The position numbers were made by a program, and so were the translations under genes. Shown here piece after piece: positions 18,314-29,137 of a DNA stretch of 64,000 nt. The DNA is taken from the sequence record NC_100371.1; one strand, written 5' to 3'. Source of the DNA: a phage. The notes beneath the pieces are model-generated. The model was given only the letters and a program-made list of their open reading frames with translations, did not search any database and was not told the origin of the DNA. The first letter of the stretch is position 1, and the number at the start of each line of letters is the position of its first letter.

Positions 18314-19498
18314 TCAAGCTTTAGCTAAAATGGCGCTAAACTCTTCACCAAACTCTTTTACAATCTTCATCAGGTTTGGGTATGCTTTGATCAGCTGAGC
18401 AACGATCTTGTCCCTGCCTTTACCAATAAGTAAGGCATTTCCTAAGGCGTTAGGTTTCATCATCGCCATAAAGACTGAGAATACAAAGTCTCGGTTCTCA
18501 TCCTTGAAATTTTCCCAAAGGAAATCAAGGAAGTTTGCCACACAGCTGACGAGATCTTCGTCGGAGATACTTGCATTTTCCATCATATTACGAATAGCGA
18601 TACAACCTTCAGACCCCAGAATCCACAAGATGTCTGGCTGCTTAGGACCTACATATTCTTTGCAGCCTCCTGCCATAATCCGACCGATTTCTGGCAAGTT
18701 TCGTTTCTTGGTGTGGTAGGTCCAAATTTCTACCGCTGCAGTGTGACCAATTGCACCTTGTAGAAGGACACGGGCCATAGCGTCAGAAATAATACCGCTG
18801 TCAAAATCGTGCAGGATGTCAGATGCAGCAACCCAAGATCGCGGTGTAGCAAAAGATGGACAATTAATCTCAGCCATGGCCTCATAATTATCGATGGCTG
18901 ATGGGACTCTTTTCAGATATCCAATTACCGAGGAGTGCACCCCATTAAGGAATGCATAGTCCTCAATAAACACCTCTGCACTGCTTGTAACTTCTACAAT
19001 GATAAAGCGGTTAGCTAGAGGAGCTTCGAGCGCCGAAAGAACAGCACCGTCTGTAGCACGGTTACCTGCAGCTACAAAAACAGAGCCCTTAGGAAATGCA
19101 TAGGTGCCGCACTTGTGGTCGAGCATAATTTGCATTGCAACCTTCTGCAGGTAGTTATCTGCATGAGTAAGCTCATCTAGAAAGATAATTCCGCTCCAGT
19201 CCGGATCTGCAGGCCAAAATTCTGGAATTGCAAACACTGTGCGTGTAGTCCCATCCGACTCTACAGGGATAGGTAGCCCAGATAAGTCAGCAGGATCTTT
19301 ATCTGACAACCGCACGTCAACCAGGTTGTCATCTCGCTCACCGAACATATTATCAGCAATCTGCTTCATCACCTGGCTCTTCCCCACGCCCATCGGTCCT
19401 AAAATCAGGACAGATCGGTTATGACGCTGGGCAAATTGAATAATAGCTGGCAACTCGCGGACAGTGATTTGACCACTTTCGAATACGTTTCTTGACAT
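18314..19498 (-). CDS. MoxR-family AAA+ ATPase (AAA_5; CobS/RavA-like)
   Basis: 394 aa. Walker A ILGPMGVGKS, Walker B IIFLDELTHA, sensor/arginine region AAGNRATDG ... ANRF typical of MoxR/CobS AAA+ proteins. Confidence 0.8.
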   Translation of the reverse strand: MSRNVFESGQITVRELPAIIQFAQRHNRSVLILGPMGVGKSQVMKQIADNMFGERDDNLVDVRLSDKDPADLSGLPIPVESDGTTRTVFAIPEFWPADPDWSGIIFLDELTHADNYLQKVAMQIMLDHKCGTYAFPKGSVFVAAGNRATDGAVLSALEAPLANRFIIVEVTSSAEVFIEDYAFLNGVHSSVIGYLKRVPSAIDNYEAMAEINCPSFATPRSWVAASDILHDFDSGIISDAMARVLLQGAIGHTAAVEIWTYHTKKRNLPEIGRIMAGGCKEYVGPKQPDILWILGSEGCIAIRNMMENASISDEDLVSCVANFLDFLWENFKDENRDFVFSVFMAMMKPNALGNALLIGKGRDKIVAQLIKAYPNLMKIVKEFGEEFSAILAKA

Positions 19499-22077: not shown

Positions 22078-22106
22078 TTGACATCTTCTCAGGCACTTGG
22101 TAAGAT
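22078..22106 (+). promoter_or_regulatory. sigma70-type promoter, rightward (-35 TTGACA, 17-nt spacer, -10 TAAGAT)
   Basis: TTGACA at 22078-22083, 17-nt spacer, TAAGAT at 22101-22106; upstream of the first plus-strand gene. Confidence 0.6.
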
Positions 22107-22138
22107 TTCTCCACCCACAGAGAACAAGAGACAACTCA

Positions 22139-23127
22139 TGAATCTTGAAAAATATTATACACCAGAAGAGTTAGAGCGCTTGCTCAAAAAATACAGACGC
22201 AAACAGAATAACGCACGGAAACGGGATATAGAGTTCAACCTGTCATGGGAAGAATATCTCCTATTTGGTAAAAAACTTTTAGGAGAGGGAGTATGCGACT
22301 ATACCCTTATACCTTTCGACATGCACACAGATGAAAACGGACTGGGAAATCCTTTCTACCCATCTCTAGAGCGGATAGATGATGAAGGTCCTTATGCGGT
22401 TGATAACTGTTGTGTGGTAGGATTGAGATGCAACTCTCTAAAGGACTGTCTGGTAGATAAAAAGACCGCAGTCTTGATTAAAGACAAAACTGATCGAAAA
22501 ATTGTCCAGCAGATGATGCTCCACCTGAGCGAAGAGCGTATGGAGAAATTGAAAGGTGATTACACTTTTGAAGATTTCATCTTGCAATATGGAACGGAAG
22601 AGGATAAACTAGCACTCTTTGACGAAGAATGGGAGGAAGATATGTCACCAATGCAGGATTTTAAAAACTTCATGGCTAATCGTGGAGCCAACAAGCACAT
22701 TTCTGACATTGTAAACGAGCCTGCAGTAGAGGAGATTGAAGAGATGACGCAACAGGCTTACGAAGAGGAAAAAGAGCCTCAAGGGGTCGAAGAAGAGCTT
22801 ACAGAAGAGGTTCCTGCACTGCCTGACGATGTTGAGATTGCCAAAGCTTACACTTTCTATTGCCAGACGTTCTACGATGCAGGTATGAAAGTTGATCTGT
22901 CATTCAGCCAGTTTAAGAGCACATACATTCGAAAATGTTGTGCTTTAACTGGTGAACGTCTCGGTGCCGGACTTAAACCCCTATTAGTTACCGACTGGAA
23001 CAAAGGTTTCACCAAAGGTAACTTCATGGTAGTATCTCCAATCATGGAGAAGGCTATGACAGACCTTATGAAGACCACTCGCATGACAATGACCGAGTTG
23101 GCTGGTATTTTCAAGCACGTTAAATAA
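22139..23127 (+). CDS. hypothetical protein with internal duplication and acidic linker
   Basis: ORF track 22078..23127 starts at a TTG inside the promoter; ATG at 22139 preferred. Two related segments (…SLERIDDEGPYAVDNCCVV… / …LTGERLGAGLKPLLVTDWNKGF…NFMVV…) separated by a Glu-rich region. Confidence 0.5.
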
Positions 23128-23160
23128 TGACAGGGGCCAATGGCCCCTTCTGGAGTTTTA

Positions 23161-24621
23161 ATGGATAGCAGAAGTTCAGAAATCATTACCGCACAAAAAG
23201 ATGATGCCTTGCGAATGCTGCAGGCCGCTCGCATGTACCTTCTTGAAAAGCTGCCGTTTTATGGCACACTGTTGTCAGGGTTACAGTTCGTAGAAAACCA
23301 CACATGGTGCTCCACTATGGCAACAGACCATAAACGCATCTACTACAGTCCTGAGTTCATTATGGGGTTGGCAGATGAGCGTAAAACCATTCTTAAAGCA
23401 TCTCTGACTGACAAGCAGTTTGAGATGGCTGAAGTTTTCTATTCCCCAAAATCTGTGAAAGAGGTGGCCTTTCTTCTGTCACATGAGGTGGGGCATATTA
23501 TCTGTGATCATCTGGTCCGTGGTAAAAGCTTTGAGCCGGAACTGTTCAATATTGCTTGTGATCACGTTATCAACACAGGTCTTGTGGTTGACTTTAGCAA
23601 GCCTCCTTGTGTTTTCTTCCCGAAGGGGAAAAGCACTGAGTTCGTAAAAGGTAAGCCTTTTGGCTTCTTAGCCAGTTGCTACTGCGACATGGAGTTTCAT
23701 GGATGGATTGCTGAGAACGTCTATGCAGTTCTTGATAAACAAAGAGATCAGAATAGCGGTAAAAGTAAGAACGGTAAAGGTGAGAACTCCCAAGGAGATA
23801 AACGACAAACCGATGATCACATGAGTGGGAACGGTGGCACCAGTGATGATCTTGGAAAGGCTATGGGGTATGATCAGCCGCAACCAGTAATCAGTCAATC
23901 TGATAAAGATCAGGCCATGCAGGACTCTGGTGACATGTTGGAAGCAGCAATGCAAGCTTCAGGAGGTCGTTGCCCCGAGGCGGTGCGCGAGTTTGTCAAA
24001 AACAGAGGCAAGCCTGTAATCAATTATATAGATATTATTAAGCAACGTATGTTATCTAAAAGAAAGGCTGAGTTAACCTACAGAAAACCTGGTCGCCGAT
24101 CTGGGTCTTTGACCACCACAATGCGAAAAGTTGGAGCTATAAACAAGAATCAACACGTTATTGTTCCTGGTCGTAATCCGGAAAACACTATAGATATTGT
24201 AGTGGCTTTAGACGTTTCTGGATCGATCTCACAAAGAACTTTAAAGAAAATGTTCAATGAGATCACCGGGTTGTGCAATTTGTATAAAGAGTTTAAGGTT
24301 ACGATGTTCTGTTGGTCAACCGAGGTTGGAGAGGTTAAAGTATACACTCGCGGTAACATCGATGAGATGATCAACTATGAGGTCCACTCAACATGGGGCA
24401 CAACAGCCGCCTGCGTGTTCGAGTATCTGGATGCTAACATACCGAATGCAAAAGATGTCATCGTCCTTACCGATCTCTACTTTGAGCATAACTTTGAACA
24501 AAAGGCTGTTGACAACAAGTGGAAAAAGTACGATACTTTATGGGTTCTCACTGAAGGGTATAATAAAAATTATATCCCGAGCTTTGGGAAAACTGTGGAA
24601 TTAATCGAGTACGTTAAATAA
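23161..24621 (+). CDS. HExxH metallopeptidase-like / von Willebrand factor A (vWA) domain protein
   Basis: N-terminal HExxH (LLSHEVGHIICDH); C-terminal vWA with MIDAS DxSGS (VVALDVSGSIS) and VIVLTDLYF. Preferred start ATG 23161 (GGAG RBS) after hairpin 23132-23148; ORF-track start 23140. Confidence 0.7.
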   Translation: MDSRSSEIITAQKDDALRMLQAARMYLLEKLPFYGTLLSGLQFVENHTWCSTMATDHKRIYYSPEFIMGLADERKTILKASLTDKQFEMAEVFYSPKSVKEVAFLLSHEVGHIICDHLVRGKSFEPELFNIACDHVINTGLVVDFSKPPCVFFPKGKSTEFVKGKPFGFLASCYCDMEFHGWIAENVYAVLDKQRDQNSGKSKNGKGENSQGDKRQTDDHMSGNGGTSDDLGKAMGYDQPQPVISQSDKDQAMQDSGDMLEAAMQASGGRCPEAVREFVKNRGKPVINYIDIIKQRMLSKRKAELTYRKPGRRSGSLTTTMRKVGAINKNQHVIVPGRNPENTIDIVVALDVSGSISQRTLKKMFNEITGLCNLYKEFKVTMFCWSTEVGEVKVYTRGNIDEMINYEVHSTWGTTAACVFEYLDANIPNAKDVIVLTDLYFEHNFEQKAVDNKWKKYDTLWVLTEGYNKNYIPSFGKTVELIEYVK

Positions 24622-24636
24622 AGGAGGAGATTATTT

Positions 24637-24900
24637 ATGGCAACAGAGTTAAAATTTGCATCCAACCGTAAAACTAAGAAGTATCTGTCTTCAGTAGCTC
24701 CAGGTACTGTGGTGATGTTTGTTGATGAACTTGGAGATGTGAATACAGCACTTGTTGTGAGATCACATCCTGCAAACATATATGTTGGGGTATTTGACCT
24801 GTTCAGAAAGGTGTTTGCAGAACTACCTCACACCTTGGTTGTTACAGAAATGGATGCCTGCATAGAAATTCTTGGCGAAGTTATGGTGGAGGAACAATAA
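24637..24900 (+). CDS. hypothetical small protein, tandem paralog 1 of 4 (87 aa)
   Basis: AAGGAGGAG RBS; MAT...GTVV...D..G pattern shared with the next three genes. Confidence 0.55.
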   Translation: MATELKFASNRKTKKYLSSVAPGTVVMFVDELGDVNTALVVRSHPANIYVGVFDLFRKVFAELPHTLVVTEMDACIEILGEVMVEEQ

Positions 24901-25163
24901 TGGCTACTAGCATTGTATTCAATTCTAAAGTGAAGAACAAAAAGCGTGCAGACAGTTTTCCATGTGGGACCGTGGTAAGTTGTGACGGAGACGGCATTCA
25001 AAACATAGTTATGATTGTCAAAACAGGGGAACATTGTGTATGGGGGTTCGATTTAGAAAATAATGAGTTGTACGATCTGCCACCAAACATGAAAGTTACA
25101 GAGCTTGACACCAAAATTACCATCCTTGGAGAGACAAGCTATTCAAAAGAAGGAGGAGAATAA
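24900..25163 (+). CDS. hypothetical small protein, tandem paralog 2 of 4 (87 aa)
   Basis: TAATG stop/start overlap; same length and pattern (MATSIVF...CGTVVSCDGDG). Confidence 0.55.
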   Translation: MATSIVFNSKVKNKKRADSFPCGTVVSCDGDGIQNIVMIVKTGEHCVWGFDLENNELYDLPPNMKVTELDTKITILGETSYSKEGGE

Positions 25164-25426
25164 TGACCACGAAAATCACCATTGCAGAACCAAAAGCTAA
25201 CACGCAACCTATCGAAAAGTTTAAATGCGGTGAGGTGGTAACATTTACACCAGATAATGAAGATGCTAAGATTTTTGCCATGGTAACAGCCGAGTGGATG
25301 TGTGACAATACCACACAGGTGCTGCGTTTTGACACCTATCTTACAGATGAAATCAGGAACGACAAGATCGTGACTGGTGTGGATACTGAGATTATTTTCT
25401 ACAAGAGCTTTTTAGAGGGTTTCTGA
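25163..25426 (+). CDS. hypothetical small protein, tandem paralog 3 of 4 (87 aa)
   Basis: TAATG overlap; KFKCGEVVTF pattern. Confidence 0.55.
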   Translation: MTTKITIAEPKANTQPIEKFKCGEVVTFTPDNEDAKIFAMVTAEWMCDNTTQVLRFDTYLTDEIRNDKIVTGVDTEIIFYKSFLEGF

Positions 25427-25427
25427 T

Positions 25428-25661
25428 ATGGCAAAAATTCGTAAATTATCCAGCAATCAGGTTGTGAAAGACTTTGAATCTGGAGAGATCTTGTATGTCC
25501 GTGATGCAGATGATGAATGTGAAGATCTTGTTATGCTGGTAGGGCACGCTGAAGACGGATGCATCCAGGCTGTTTTTCTTGAAACAGCGATGGTGCACTG
25601 GATAGAGCTGGACCTGAAAGCACGAAAACCTAAAGCAGAAATCATTATTTACGAAGATTAA
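25428..25661 (+). CDS. hypothetical small protein, tandem paralog 4 of 4 (77 aa, more divergent)
   Basis: Adjacent, co-oriented; FESGEILYVRDADDECEDLVMLV pattern resembles paralogs 1-3. Confidence 0.5.
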   Translation: MAKIRKLSSNQVVKDFESGEILYVRDADDECEDLVMLVGHAEDGCIQAVFLETAMVHWIELDLKARKPKAEIIIYED

Positions 25662-25677
25662 CAAGAAGGAGAGAGCC

Positions 25678-26127
25678 GTGTTGAGCAAACGTGAATGCGA
25701 CAGCATTAGCCTGAATTCTTATAAGAAACAATGGTTTGGGGTAGAAGTTTGCCGACTACGGCTGGGCTCCTACTTGAACTTCGTCTATTATGAGAGTGAC
25801 AGTCGTATCGTTTCTTATGAAGTGTTCTACACTAAGAATACATTCGAGCTGAGACGTAAGGTGGATGGCGGGAGATCTACCGCCCAGAATAATTGGGAAA
25901 CTATTCTGCCTCCAGATGTTATAGGAAGTCCCCTGAATGTATCTGAAGATGAAAATCTTATGGTTCATGCTATGATGGGACTTGACAGCTTAGAGCTGGC
26001 GATCTATGATATGTCTATCGAAGCAGTTAAGCTGGACTACATCGAAAACACTTTAGAGGAAGGTATCAAGAAGTTTCTCGGTGAGAAATTGAAAGCCCAC
26101 TTTCATAAGGAGCTATATCTGTTATGA
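25678..26127 (+). CDS. hypothetical protein (149 aa)
   Basis: ORF with AAGGAGAG RBS; non-ATG (GTG/TTG) start likely. Confidence 0.45.
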   Translation: MLSKRECDSISLNSYKKQWFGVEVCRLRLGSYLNFVYYESDSRIVSYEVFYTKNTFELRRKVDGGRSTAQNNWETILPPDVIGSPLNVSEDENLMVHAMMGLDSLELAIYDMSIEAVKLDYIENTLEEGIKKFLGEKLKAHFHKELYLL

Positions 26128-26369
26128 AGACCCGTAAAGAACGTAACAAGATTTTACCTGGCGCTCTCGAACACATGATGAAGTGCAGATCTATCTGGCA
26201 CTCTGCCAAGGAGGGGCAGCATGTGGTCGTGGTTAGTGATAATGCCAACCCGTTCGGTGATTATGTCACCATGATGACTCCATACATCCGCGACGGTGTT
26301 GTGGAAGTGGTTCCTTATAGTGGTCTGCATGAGAGGCATTTTGAGAGCACTTTGCTAGTGGAGCTATAA
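26124..26369 (+). CDS. hypothetical protein (81 aa)
   Basis: ATGA overlap with the upstream gene. Confidence 0.45.
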   Translation: MKTRKERNKILPGALEHMMKCRSIWHSAKEGQHVVVVSDNANPFGDYVTMMTPYIRDGVVEVVPYSGLHERHFESTLLVEL

Positions 26370-26371
26370 TT

Positions 26372-26938
26372 ATGGCGGTCAATGTGGCTTACAACACAGG
26401 AAAGCTTGACAGAGACATTGGGTGTCTTGTCCTTTCAGATACAGAGGAGTATTGGGGTTATGGGTTGCTGTCAGACCCACACCCGAGCAACCTTGTATCA
26501 ACAGTGCTATATCGCTACGACCCTGTACCAACGGTGCACGACAAAGATATTCACGACCTTCGGGTCAAGTGTCTGGAAGATCTTCTGAACAATGGCTGCA
26601 ACGATCTGCAGGTAGCCAAGGAGAAGCTTACAAACATCCACAAAGAGGAAGTGATGAGCACCCTCAGTAAGAGGTCAGTGCACAAAAAGATGATGCTGAA
26701 CTTTGCAATGGGTATCTACATGGATGGGTATAAGGGAGGGGATCCGATCCTCAAGCTTCGCTGCCCAACACTGTGGGAAAGAGTGGTTGACAGTAAGGAC
26801 GGTACTGCCCTGCTAGAACTCCACACTGCAGGTTGGATTTGGCGGTATGTAGACGGATACCCTCTGTGGGCATGTGGACCCGGTGAGTTTGTTGACAGAC
26901 CTAGCGCGGTGGTGGATTTGCTATTGCAGTTTGAATAA
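26372..26938 (+). CDS. hypothetical protein (188 aa)
   Basis: Co-oriented ORF, 2-nt spacing from the upstream gene. Confidence 0.5.
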   Translation: MAVNVAYNTGKLDRDIGCLVLSDTEEYWGYGLLSDPHPSNLVSTVLYRYDPVPTVHDKDIHDLRVKCLEDLLNNGCNDLQVAKEKLTNIHKEEVMSTLSKRSVHKKMMLNFAMGIYMDGYKGGDPILKLRCPTLWERVVDSKDGTALLELHTAGWIWRYVDGYPLWACGPGEFVDRPSAVVDLLLQFE

Positions 26939-26994
26939 AAGGTGAGTTATAAAGCATTCATACACCTATCAACAATACAACAAGAGAGACTGAG

Positions 26995-27270
26995 ATGACG
27001 AAAGAAGAAGCTGACGTATTAGACTTTGCACTAGAGGCTACGCAAGAGGCTCTAGTGTTAGCTTGGAAAATGAACCAACGTGCTGCAGAATGCAACCGCC
27101 GAATCAATGAGATCCTGGGTATGTCTATGTATGATTTCACCATGCATGCTGGAGAGATTCCTGAATTAACTGCTGAGATGAATGATCTTGACAATAAAAT
27201 TAATATCATTCTGAAGACAGCAGAAACAACTCACCAAACCGCCCGTAAATTTATCAACGAGAAGGTGTGA
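26995..27270 (+). CDS. hypothetical protein (91 aa), predicted helical
   Basis: Co-oriented ORF. Confidence 0.45.
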   Translation: MTKEEADVLDFALEATQEALVLAWKMNQRAAECNRRINEILGMSMYDFTMHAGEIPELTAEMNDLDNKINIILKTAETTHQTARKFINEKV

Positions 27271-27746
27271 ATATGGACTACAGCTACTGCGGAGAAGAAG
27301 TACCTTTTAACTACAGCAATCTCACCACGAGCAATCCATATGAGACTCGTCACGGCACGCATATCATTGCTATTGACTTTGATGGAACGTTTAATGCGAG
27401 CCCTTTCATCTTCTCCCGCCTTATTAAGGACCTGAAGAAGGAGGGGTGGACAGTCTATCTTGTGACTTTCCGATTCATCACTCAAGACAACGTGGACATC
27501 GAATACTGGCGCAAGGAGCTCGATGTTGGAGTGTTTTATACTGGAGGCGTTCAGAAGGCCGCTTATCTGGCGCAGTTTGATATCTACCCAGACATCTGGG
27601 TTGATGATTCTCCAGCTTGCATTCCGGCTAAGAATCAGTTAGAGTTTGCAATGAAGGAGATTGAGTATAAGTCTGACGCTAAGCGTAACGGATGGCCCTT
27701 TATTATTGAAGATTACCCAGATCCTGAACCGGAGAAAGAACCATGA
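27267..27746 (+). CDS. HAD-superfamily phosphatase (possible nucleotidase)
   Basis: HAD motif I IIAIDFDGT and C-terminal acidic motif IWVDDSP. Confidence 0.6.
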   Translation: MNMDYSYCGEEVPFNYSNLTTSNPYETRHGTHIIAIDFDGTFNASPFIFSRLIKDLKKEGWTVYLVTFRFITQDNVDIEYWRKELDVGVFYTGGVQKAAYLAQFDIYPDIWVDDSPACIPAKNQLEFAMKEIEYKSDAKRNGWPFIIEDYPDPEPEKEP

Positions 27747-29112: not shown

Positions 29113-29137
29113 GGGGCCATTTGGCCCCCCTTTTTTA
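29113..29137. terminator. bidirectional intrinsic terminator between convergent operons
   Basis: GGGGCC-ATTT-GGCCCC hairpin flanked by an A-run upstream and a T-run (TTTTTT) downstream. Confidence 0.7.

Follow-up and report, generated by a model that had tools for sequence, protein, structure and literature searches.

What are the four small open reading frames (ORFs) that follow one another on the plus strand of the phage sequence NC_100371.1, are they copies of one gene, and what might they do for the phage? An earlier note, made from the letters of the window alone (the window being the whole stretch of 64,000 nucleotides (nt) analysed here), had taken them for tandemly duplicated and translationally coupled genes, and had pointed to host takeover or anti-defence as roles common among such arrays. 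Over positions 23100-27300 the window shares 99.5% identity with Escherichia phage B9-1 and 90-95% with more than 100 further rV5-like phages (genus Vequintavirus), identifying it as part of an rV5-like coliphage. The four ORFs were found as described, on the plus strand at 24637-25661 and with the lengths that had been given: c1 at 24637-24900 (87 amino acids (aa), isoelectric point (pI) 5.0), c2 at 24900-25163 (87 aa, pI 4.9), c3 at 25163-25426 (87 aa, pI 4.5) and c4 at 25428-25661 (77 aa, pI 4.6). The genes c1 and c2 are the first and second gene of an exchangeable cassette, c3 encodes a very strongly conserved protein, and c4 is the most divergent copy.

The ORFs are tightly packed. The stop and start codons of c1/c2 and of c2/c3 overlap by one base in the sequence TAATG, as the note had claimed for the whole array, whereas c3 and c4 are joined as TGA-t-ATG, with a 1-nt gap and no overlap. 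Shine-Dalgarno sites lie 4-8 nt upstream of all four ATG codons, at 24622-24629 (AGGAGGAG) for c1, 24888-24893 (GGAGGA) for c2, 25151-25158 (again AGGAGGAG) for c3 and 25414-25419 (AGAGGG) for c4, and the last three are embedded in the C-terminal codons of the preceding gene. The same stop/start and Shine-Dalgarno geometry is present in the array of the more distant contig L014. This is the arrangement expected of a translationally coupled block, and the four genes are therefore presumably coupled. In all records the products are annotated as hypothetical, except that c1 of B9-1 is named 'excinuclease ATPase subunit'. Searches of Pfam, NCBIfam and the PDB with the sequences of the copies gave nothing above noise, which leaves this name unsupported.

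The paralogy of c1 and c2 is certain from their sequences, which share 38% identity (BLASTP E = 4e-12) and give a Smith-Waterman z of 17 over 2000 shuffles. For the pairs c2-c3 and c3-c4, BLASTP returned no alignment and the z values were 4.5 and 4.3, respectively. Because an unrelated control pair gave a similar value of 3.6, pairwise shuffle tests do not settle the position of c3 and c4. A family profile was thus built from 11 sequences, comprising c1/c2, rV5 gp014, other alleles and the divergent members P0027-P0029. In hhalign, the c1/c2/gp14 profile matched the c3 family with P = 1.1e-6 (probability 91%) and the c4 family with P = 4.7e-5, the latter alignment spanning 69 of the 77 residues; upon addition of c3 to the profile, the match to c4 reached P = 1.6e-6 (probability 90%). 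With six reversed sequences as controls, P ranged from 0.026 to 0.53. Direct comparison of the c3 family with the c4 family was not significant (P = 0.04). When the profile, lacking both c3 and c4, was run against every window ORF of 55-160 aa that begins with ATG (124 in total), c3 (7.9e-7) and c4 (2.4e-4) were the top two non-self matches, and the next one (2.5e-3) covered ten columns. Neither this whole-window scan nor the neighbouring small genes gp17, gp18 and gp20 yielded any further paralogue.

The copies also share sequence features in a common register, namely an F-x-x-G-E/T-V/I motif and a C-terminal x-I-x-I strand. The N-termini of c1 to c4 read MAT, MAT, MTT and MAK, and the central motif reads GTVV, GTVV, GEVV and GEIL, so that the MAT and G[TE]VV pattern previously noticed is present as described but becomes looser in c3 and c4. 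In PHROGs, the four proteins are split over three families with full-length matches (E = 1e-41 to 1e-62): c1 and c2 belong to phrog_10698, c3 to phrog_12861 and c4 to phrog_12046. These are the proteins' own families and are all annotated as hypothetical. No nucleotide similarity between the copies was found outside the Shine-Dalgarno regions, and there is no nucleotide-level repeat of the genes, indicating that the duplications are ancient rather than recent. Together, the profile P-values, the identical strand order and fold class predicted independently for two copies, the adjacency of the genes and a single-copy relative in the same slot make c3 a well-supported and c4 a probable product of tandem duplication, which for c1/c2 we regard as proven.

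The structure predictions point in the same direction. The AlphaFold2 model of c2 is all-beta, with a predicted local distance difference test score (pLDDT) of 76 and a predicted template modelling score (pTM) of 0.61; the model of c4, for which the input was the c4 family only, is also all-beta (pLDDT 71, pTM 0.60), and the order and spacing of the strands are identical in the two. The copies are thus predicted to be acidic, cytoplasmic, all-beta proteins of the SH3/Tudor-like small-barrel fold. The pI of all copies is acidic (4.2-5.7), and the proteins are soluble and carry no catalytic or metal-binding motif. Only Met1, Gly23 and Ile73 are invariant across the four families.

Structural comparison revealed fold-level likeness to the Tudor/PWWP/BAH 'royal family' barrels (PHF19 Tudor 6wau, Sds3 capped Tudor 7sxi and SMN Tudor 1g5v), and also to the uL2 C-terminal domain and the C-terminal Tudor domain of UvrD/PcrA (7egs/5dma), a likeness that does not imply a shared ligand. 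Sequence identity to these Tudor/SH3-like barrels is 4-18%, with no sequence-level relationship, and the array models carry two additions, a hairpin at the N-terminus and a strand at the C-terminus. Although the five-stranded SH3-like barrel is present, the copies are not members of the Tudor 'royal family' of methyl-lysine or methyl-arginine readers, because both a conserved aromatic cage and a match in the Pfam, NCBIfam or PDB sequence searches are absent. Ring-forming RNA-binding proteins of the Sm/Hfq type were likewise ruled out, since there is neither an N-terminal alpha-helix nor an Sm1 or Sm2 motif. A Foldseek search of BFVD with the c2 model retrieved small (70-90 aa), uncharacterised phage proteins of similar length with template modelling scores of 0.5-0.7. 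Among them, SU7 A0A8F3C9H7, N4 gp21 and proteins of phages 172-1, NJ01, EP335 and ZC08 have the same predicted barrel as c2, but with E values of only 1e-3 to 5e-2 and identities of 10-20%.

The substitution patterns indicate that all four ORFs are genuine translated genes under purifying selection. The ratio of non-synonymous to synonymous substitution rates (dN/dS) against orthologues is 0.12-0.25 for c1, 0-0.15 for c2, 0-0.05 for c3 and 0-0.15 for c4. Between the window and rV5, c3 shows 25 synonymous and no non-synonymous differences. Compared with phage Aya (L005, 2764-3027), 47 of about 54 synonymous sites in c3 are changed (proportion of changed synonymous sites, pS, 0.865), together with six non-synonymous differences, whereas the pS of the flanking genes c2 and c4 is 0.28 and 0.16, respectively. 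This excess of synonymous change points to constraint on the protein of the plus frame, and the overlapping minus-strand ORFs are therefore spurious. Against L014, the amino-acid identity of the window is 56% for c1, 64% for c2, 97% for c3 and 92% for c4, while that of the flanking metallopeptidase and gp17 genes is 81% and 61%. The region is a local mosaic, in which deep allele classes of c3 encode a nearly identical protein. At the nucleotide level, c3 and c4 of L014 are 89-91% identical to the window, and the flanks only 72-75%.

Two readings that would change the identity of the array can be weighed against these data. If the ORFs were chance or untranslated frames and the region acted as RNA or as regulatory DNA, four frames in which synonymous changes far exceed non-synonymous ones (dN/dS 0-0.25), a strong Shine-Dalgarno site ahead of each ATG, and conservation of the ORFs across 117 phage genomes would be hard to explain. 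Searches for Rfam families and tRNAs in the window were blank, and nothing speaks for this reading beyond absent direct expression data. We give it practically no credence, as it is effectively refuted by dN/dS. The other reading restricts true paralogy to c1/c2 and rV5 gp014, with c3 and/or c4 being unrelated genes that happen to share a common small beta-barrel fold, length and position. It draws on the BLASTP failures for c2/c3 and c3/c4, on pairwise z values of 2.5-4.5 that overlap the unrelated control, on the weak hhalign match between the c3 and c4 families, on the three distinct PHROGs families, and on the abundance of SH3-like barrels among small phage proteins. However, c3 and c4, which lie side by side, came out on top of 124 ORFs with a profile from which both were absent, the alignment to c4 is collinear, near full-length and strengthened when c3 is in the profile, the two shared motifs are in register, and the predicted strand order is identical. 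We therefore regard a separate origin of c3 or c4 as improbable.

Comparison across related phages, which the note had proposed, revealed that the copy number varies, with one, three or four members observed. Of 117 Vequintavirus records, 43 (the same number that carry c2) have four genes, as do the more distant contigs L014-L016. Three genes are found in rV5, in phage Bas54 and in 74 of the 117 records, as gp014 (85 aa), gp015 (corresponding to c3) and gp016 (corresponding to c4) in rV5, and as bas54_0054 (gp14-type), bas54_0053 (c3) and bas54_0052 (c4) in Bas54. These are the direct orthologues or paralogues of the four window genes. The identity of c1/c2 to rV5 gp014 is about 40%, that of c3 and c4 to gp015 and gp016 is 94-100%, and c3 retains at least 94% amino-acid identity throughout the 117 records. 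A single copy occurs in L008, a 123-kb contig of a distant relative whose metallopeptidase is 62% identical to that of the window; there the copy stands between the metallopeptidase gene and a gp17-like gene, with no c3 or c4. In L012, the divergent member P0028 stands alone in a different gene context.

The difference between three and four genes lies in the first slot, a feature that the note had overlooked. The window is homologous to rV5 at the nucleotide level, and likewise to the locus L007, up to 24651, 15 nt into c1, and again from 25152, in the Shine-Dalgarno site of c3. The plus-strand segment 24652..25151, containing the body of c1 and all of c2, is replaced in rV5-type phages by about 230 bp of unrelated nucleotides encoding the 85-aa gp014. 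These breaks show that c1+c2 and gp014 are alternative cassettes of one slot. At least six divergent alleles of the cassette were found, with one or two genes each. Pr121LW is assigned to the species of phage Murica and yet has the other cassette; therefore, the cassettes are exchanged. An 18-nt direct repeat that includes the Shine-Dalgarno site brackets the cassette at 24616-24633 (AAATAAAGGAGGAGATTA) and 25145-25162 (AAAAGAAGGAGGAGAATA), and may provide microhomology for cassette exchange or unequal crossing-over.

Outside these phages the family is rare. Word-indexed homologue searches from c1, c3 and c4 returned close orthologues only (at least 79% identity), and the IMG/VR search gave two loci only. 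When 1.84 billion cluster representatives were searched exhaustively with a profile, only ten proteins were recovered, among them the new divergent members P0027, P0028 and P0029. A metagenomic protein of 408 aa with four near-identical repeats of about 105 aa (P0030) matched the four-family profile with E = 1e-5 and was judged spurious, because its score was summed over the four internal repeats. In GAP31, Hena1, CR9, UPEC06 and ZC08, which represent Seunavirus, Henunavirus, Certrevirus, UPEC06 and an N4-like phage, the metallopeptidase/VWA gene is present with no detectable family member (best P 0.01-0.03). On these searches, the family appears to be confined to Vequintavirus and its closest relatives. 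In Seunavirus and Henunavirus, ORFs of 86-88 aa, GAP31_032 (L017, 2668-2928) and Hena1_02310 (L018, 2687-2953), lie between the Srd-like gene and the metallopeptidase gene. They gave the best profile matches in these genomes, which are non-significant (P 0.01-0.03) and cover about 40 columns around G-D-x-V ... W-x-F, and they could be very distant relatives of the family in another slot. Sixteen GenBank records of the MG0656xx series (for example L011, MG065677.1) are titled 'Campylobacter phage', are marked UNVERIFIED and name C. jejuni as host. They are Vequintaviruses whose nucleotide identity to rV5-like phages of E. coli is at least 90% in this region, so that the host label is questionable.

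The array is located in an operon with accessory genes. A consensus scan found a sigma-70-type promoter-like site on the plus strand at 22078..22106 (TTGACA-17-TAAGAT with an extended -10 TG), which corresponds to the P11 promoter annotated at the homologous position of rV5 and probably starts the operon. The order is an Srd-like putative anti-sigma factor gene, a DUF2201 metallopeptidase/VWA gene, the array and further small genes, all followed by a bidirectional intrinsic terminator near 29113-29131 (plus strand, 29113..29128) that closes the operon; its counterpart in rV5 separates genes 26 and 27. In the genome paper of rV5, genes 11-26 were proposed to form a single transcription unit with host-type promoters, and gp14-16 go undiscussed (PMC3606486). 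The first gene of the operon, the Srd-like gene (plus strand, 22138..23127), matches phrog_3118, the Srd anti-sigma family phrog_1400 and the sigma-70 decoy family phrog_4592, and its start differs among the annotations of the B9-1, Murica and rV5 records (22138, 22150 or 22180). In L008/L009, an IS605 OrfB/TnpB-type gene with a Cas12f1-like TNB domain (119-1258) lies directly 5' of the Srd-like gene.

The putative metallopeptidase with a VWA-like domain (plus strand, 23161..24621) matches Pfam PF13203 (2.2e-28) and PF09967 (3.6e-11), and its stop codon lies 15 nt ahead of the c1 ATG. In the rV5 RefSeq record, this gene is split into gp012 and gp013 (L003, 1757-3218), and gp011 and gp012 are named 'HNH endonuclease', as are phrog_1314 and phrog_3118. 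The window holds an intact 493-aa ORF at 23140-24621 with Pfam DUF2201_N and DUF2201 and no HNH domain, and these names look like a propagated mis-annotation. At the 3' end, the array is limited by the gp17-like gene (rV5 gp017; plus strand, 25678..26127, 149 aa), which has a GTG start and its own Shine-Dalgarno site and is not a paralogue. It is called 'tail protein' in PHROGs and RefSeq. This name is doubtful, as the gene shares an operon under a host-type promoter with accessory genes and, in Bas54, the orthologue bas54_0051 is non-essential (30 of 33 TA sites hit), with a non-significant log2 fold change (log2FC) of -2.28 (q = 0.195) on the strain CFE311 (10.1101/2025.11.20.689424).

The HIDEN-SEQ preprint that provides these values, a saturated transposon map of Bas54 (MZ501093), also bears directly on the array (10.1101/2025.11.20.689424). 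Insertions hit 17 of 17 TA sites in bas54_0054, 13 of 15 in bas54_0053 and all 12 in bas54_0052; all three genes, and the whole operon bearing the array, are classed as Non-essential. The label 'accessory region' in the note was thus apt. In the comparison of the clinical E. coli strain CFE311 with K-12, the metallopeptidase orthologue bas54_0055 was depleted (log2FC -2.2, q = 0.009), and bas54_0063, annotated as a MoxR ATPase and located in the divergent operon, was found to be an anti-defence gene against the predicted system DS-28 of CFE311 (10.1101/2025.11.20.689424). In Supplement 9 (Data S6, S7) of the same preprint, a sheet labelled K-12 vs CFE303 holds the CFE311 command and values. 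A 394-aa AAA+ ATPase of the window (minus strand, 18314-19498) matches bas54_0063 in length and divergent-operon position, with all matches to the Pfam AAA/MoxR models below threshold. The AAA+ ATPase and the metallopeptidase/VWA protein may work as an ATPase-VWA pair. Therefore, the array sits among accessory and anti-defence genes, so far without a phenotype of its own.

Taken together, the array consists of translated, anciently duplicated paralogous genes for predicted small barrels, which we propose form a coupled early block and bind host proteins. The ancestral gene, just 3' of the DUF2201 metallopeptidase/VWA gene, would have been duplicated in tandem within an operon driven by host RNA polymerase, presumably early and headed by the Srd-like anti-sigma factor. 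The stop/start geometry and the embedded Shine-Dalgarno sites would make the copies a translationally coupled block. The paralogues have diverged: the first slot is a fast-evolving swappable cassette, with one gene in rV5-type phages and two here, and c3 and c4 are kept nearly invariant at the protein level. Each barrel might stoichiometrically bind or inhibit a host protein, with c3 and c4 directed at conserved targets and the cassette copies at one that varies between strains, for instance a component of a defence system. Such an array would be useful under certain conditions and dispensable in laboratory E. coli K-12. The reading as stoichiometric early binders follows from the fold class, the charge, the genetic context, the dispensability and the evolutionary pattern; early timing, coupling and a protein-binding or anti-host function are its most conjectural parts. 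What is shown is that the genes exist and are paralogous, share a fold class, are under purifying selection, vary in copy number and in cassette type, and have non-essential orthologues.

Several observations weigh against this proposal. On CFE311 versus K-12, the log2FC values were +0.46 for bas54_0054, +0.33 for bas54_0053 and -1.32 for bas54_0052, with q of at least 0.68 (10.1101/2025.11.20.689424). An anti-defence role is therefore unproven, and the suggestion of host takeover or anti-defence in the note has not been borne out. Furthermore, no invariant aromatic residue or other candidate functional site is common to the four families, the top 50 matches of the BFVD search with the c2 model listed no c3 or c4 orthologues, and the literature yielded neither transcriptome or expression-timing data for any member of the Vequintavirinae nor a functional datum for any family member. 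With these points taken into account, we consider the proposal as a whole somewhat more probable than its negation.

Other arrangements of the same parts were considered. The paralogues could be subunits of one hetero-oligomer, with coupling setting the stoichiometry, c3 and c4 serving as scaffold and the cassette supplying an exchangeable specificity subunit. Sm or Tudor-like barrels can form heteromers, and the tight stop/start coupling of all copies and the position of the strongly conserved c3 and c4 next to a swappable first slot would fit. However, L008 and L012 carry a single copy without c3 and c4, and thus a family member can function alone; in addition, neither model has an N-terminal helix or an Sm motif. 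We consider this assembly unlikely, if still worth keeping in mind. Alternatively, the metallopeptidase/VWA protein and the nearby AAA+ ATPase could have the barrels as their adaptors or substrates, which would then act in the same anti-defence pathway. The short distance between the metallopeptidase gene and c1, the retention of this position by the single copy of L008, the depletion of the metallopeptidase orthologue on CFE311 and the validated anti-DS-28 activity of the MoxR-annotated ATPase all speak for it. Yet insertions in the gp14-type gene and c3 do not phenocopy those in the metallopeptidase gene on CFE311, and the change in c4 is not significant. Moreover, the metallopeptidase gene occurs in further Vequintavirinae genera and in an N4-like phage, two of which (CR9 and UPEC06) have an ATPase gene next to it, and none of these shows a detectable family member; P0028 lies in a different gene context. 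The conserved co-occurrence across lineages expected of a MoxR-VWA accessory module was not found. Both the Bas54 results and the missing co-occurrence in other lineages speak against an adaptor role, which we judge very unlikely. A more specific form of the host-binder proposal is a modular binder, in which c3 and c4 would act as scaffold or bind conserved machinery, and an exchangeable specificity cassette, recombining between phages at the conserved start and Shine-Dalgarno boundaries, would tune the phage to strain-specific defences and thereby help to determine host range or resistance to defence in a small way. This we regard as a speculative and rather doubtful extension.

The array is a well-supported and fairly ordinary set of small paralogous accessory genes of a lytic phage, in which the exchangeable first slot and the extremely conserved c3 are most notable. 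The three 'hypothetical' PHROG families, kept apart so far, appear to be one paralogous small-barrel family, and we found no source that treats them as such or as an array of variable copy number; several misleading database labels are corrected as well. In two members, constraint at the protein level is unusually strong despite their dispensability in the laboratory. The rV5-like phages are widely used candidates for therapy and biocontrol, with early genes that are for the most part uncharacterised. With four genes of 0.25 kb each, the array is a concrete and cheap target for anti-defence and host-factor screens. If the cassette is a determinant of host specificity, it would help to predict or engineer host range; if it is not, the locus would be one more ordinary accessory paralogue array.

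The array can be compared with arrays of small early genes in other lytic phages, among which genes for host takeover or anti-defence occur, such as the arn/arn.1-4 and motB.1-2 regions of T4, the host-takeover module of SPO1 and anti-CRISPR loci. To our knowledge, most such clusters differ from the present one in that their members are not paralogues of a single fold. They resemble it in consisting of closely spaced genes for small acidic proteins that are transcribed together from host-type promoters; the genes are dispensable in the laboratory host, and the clusters vary in content between close relatives.

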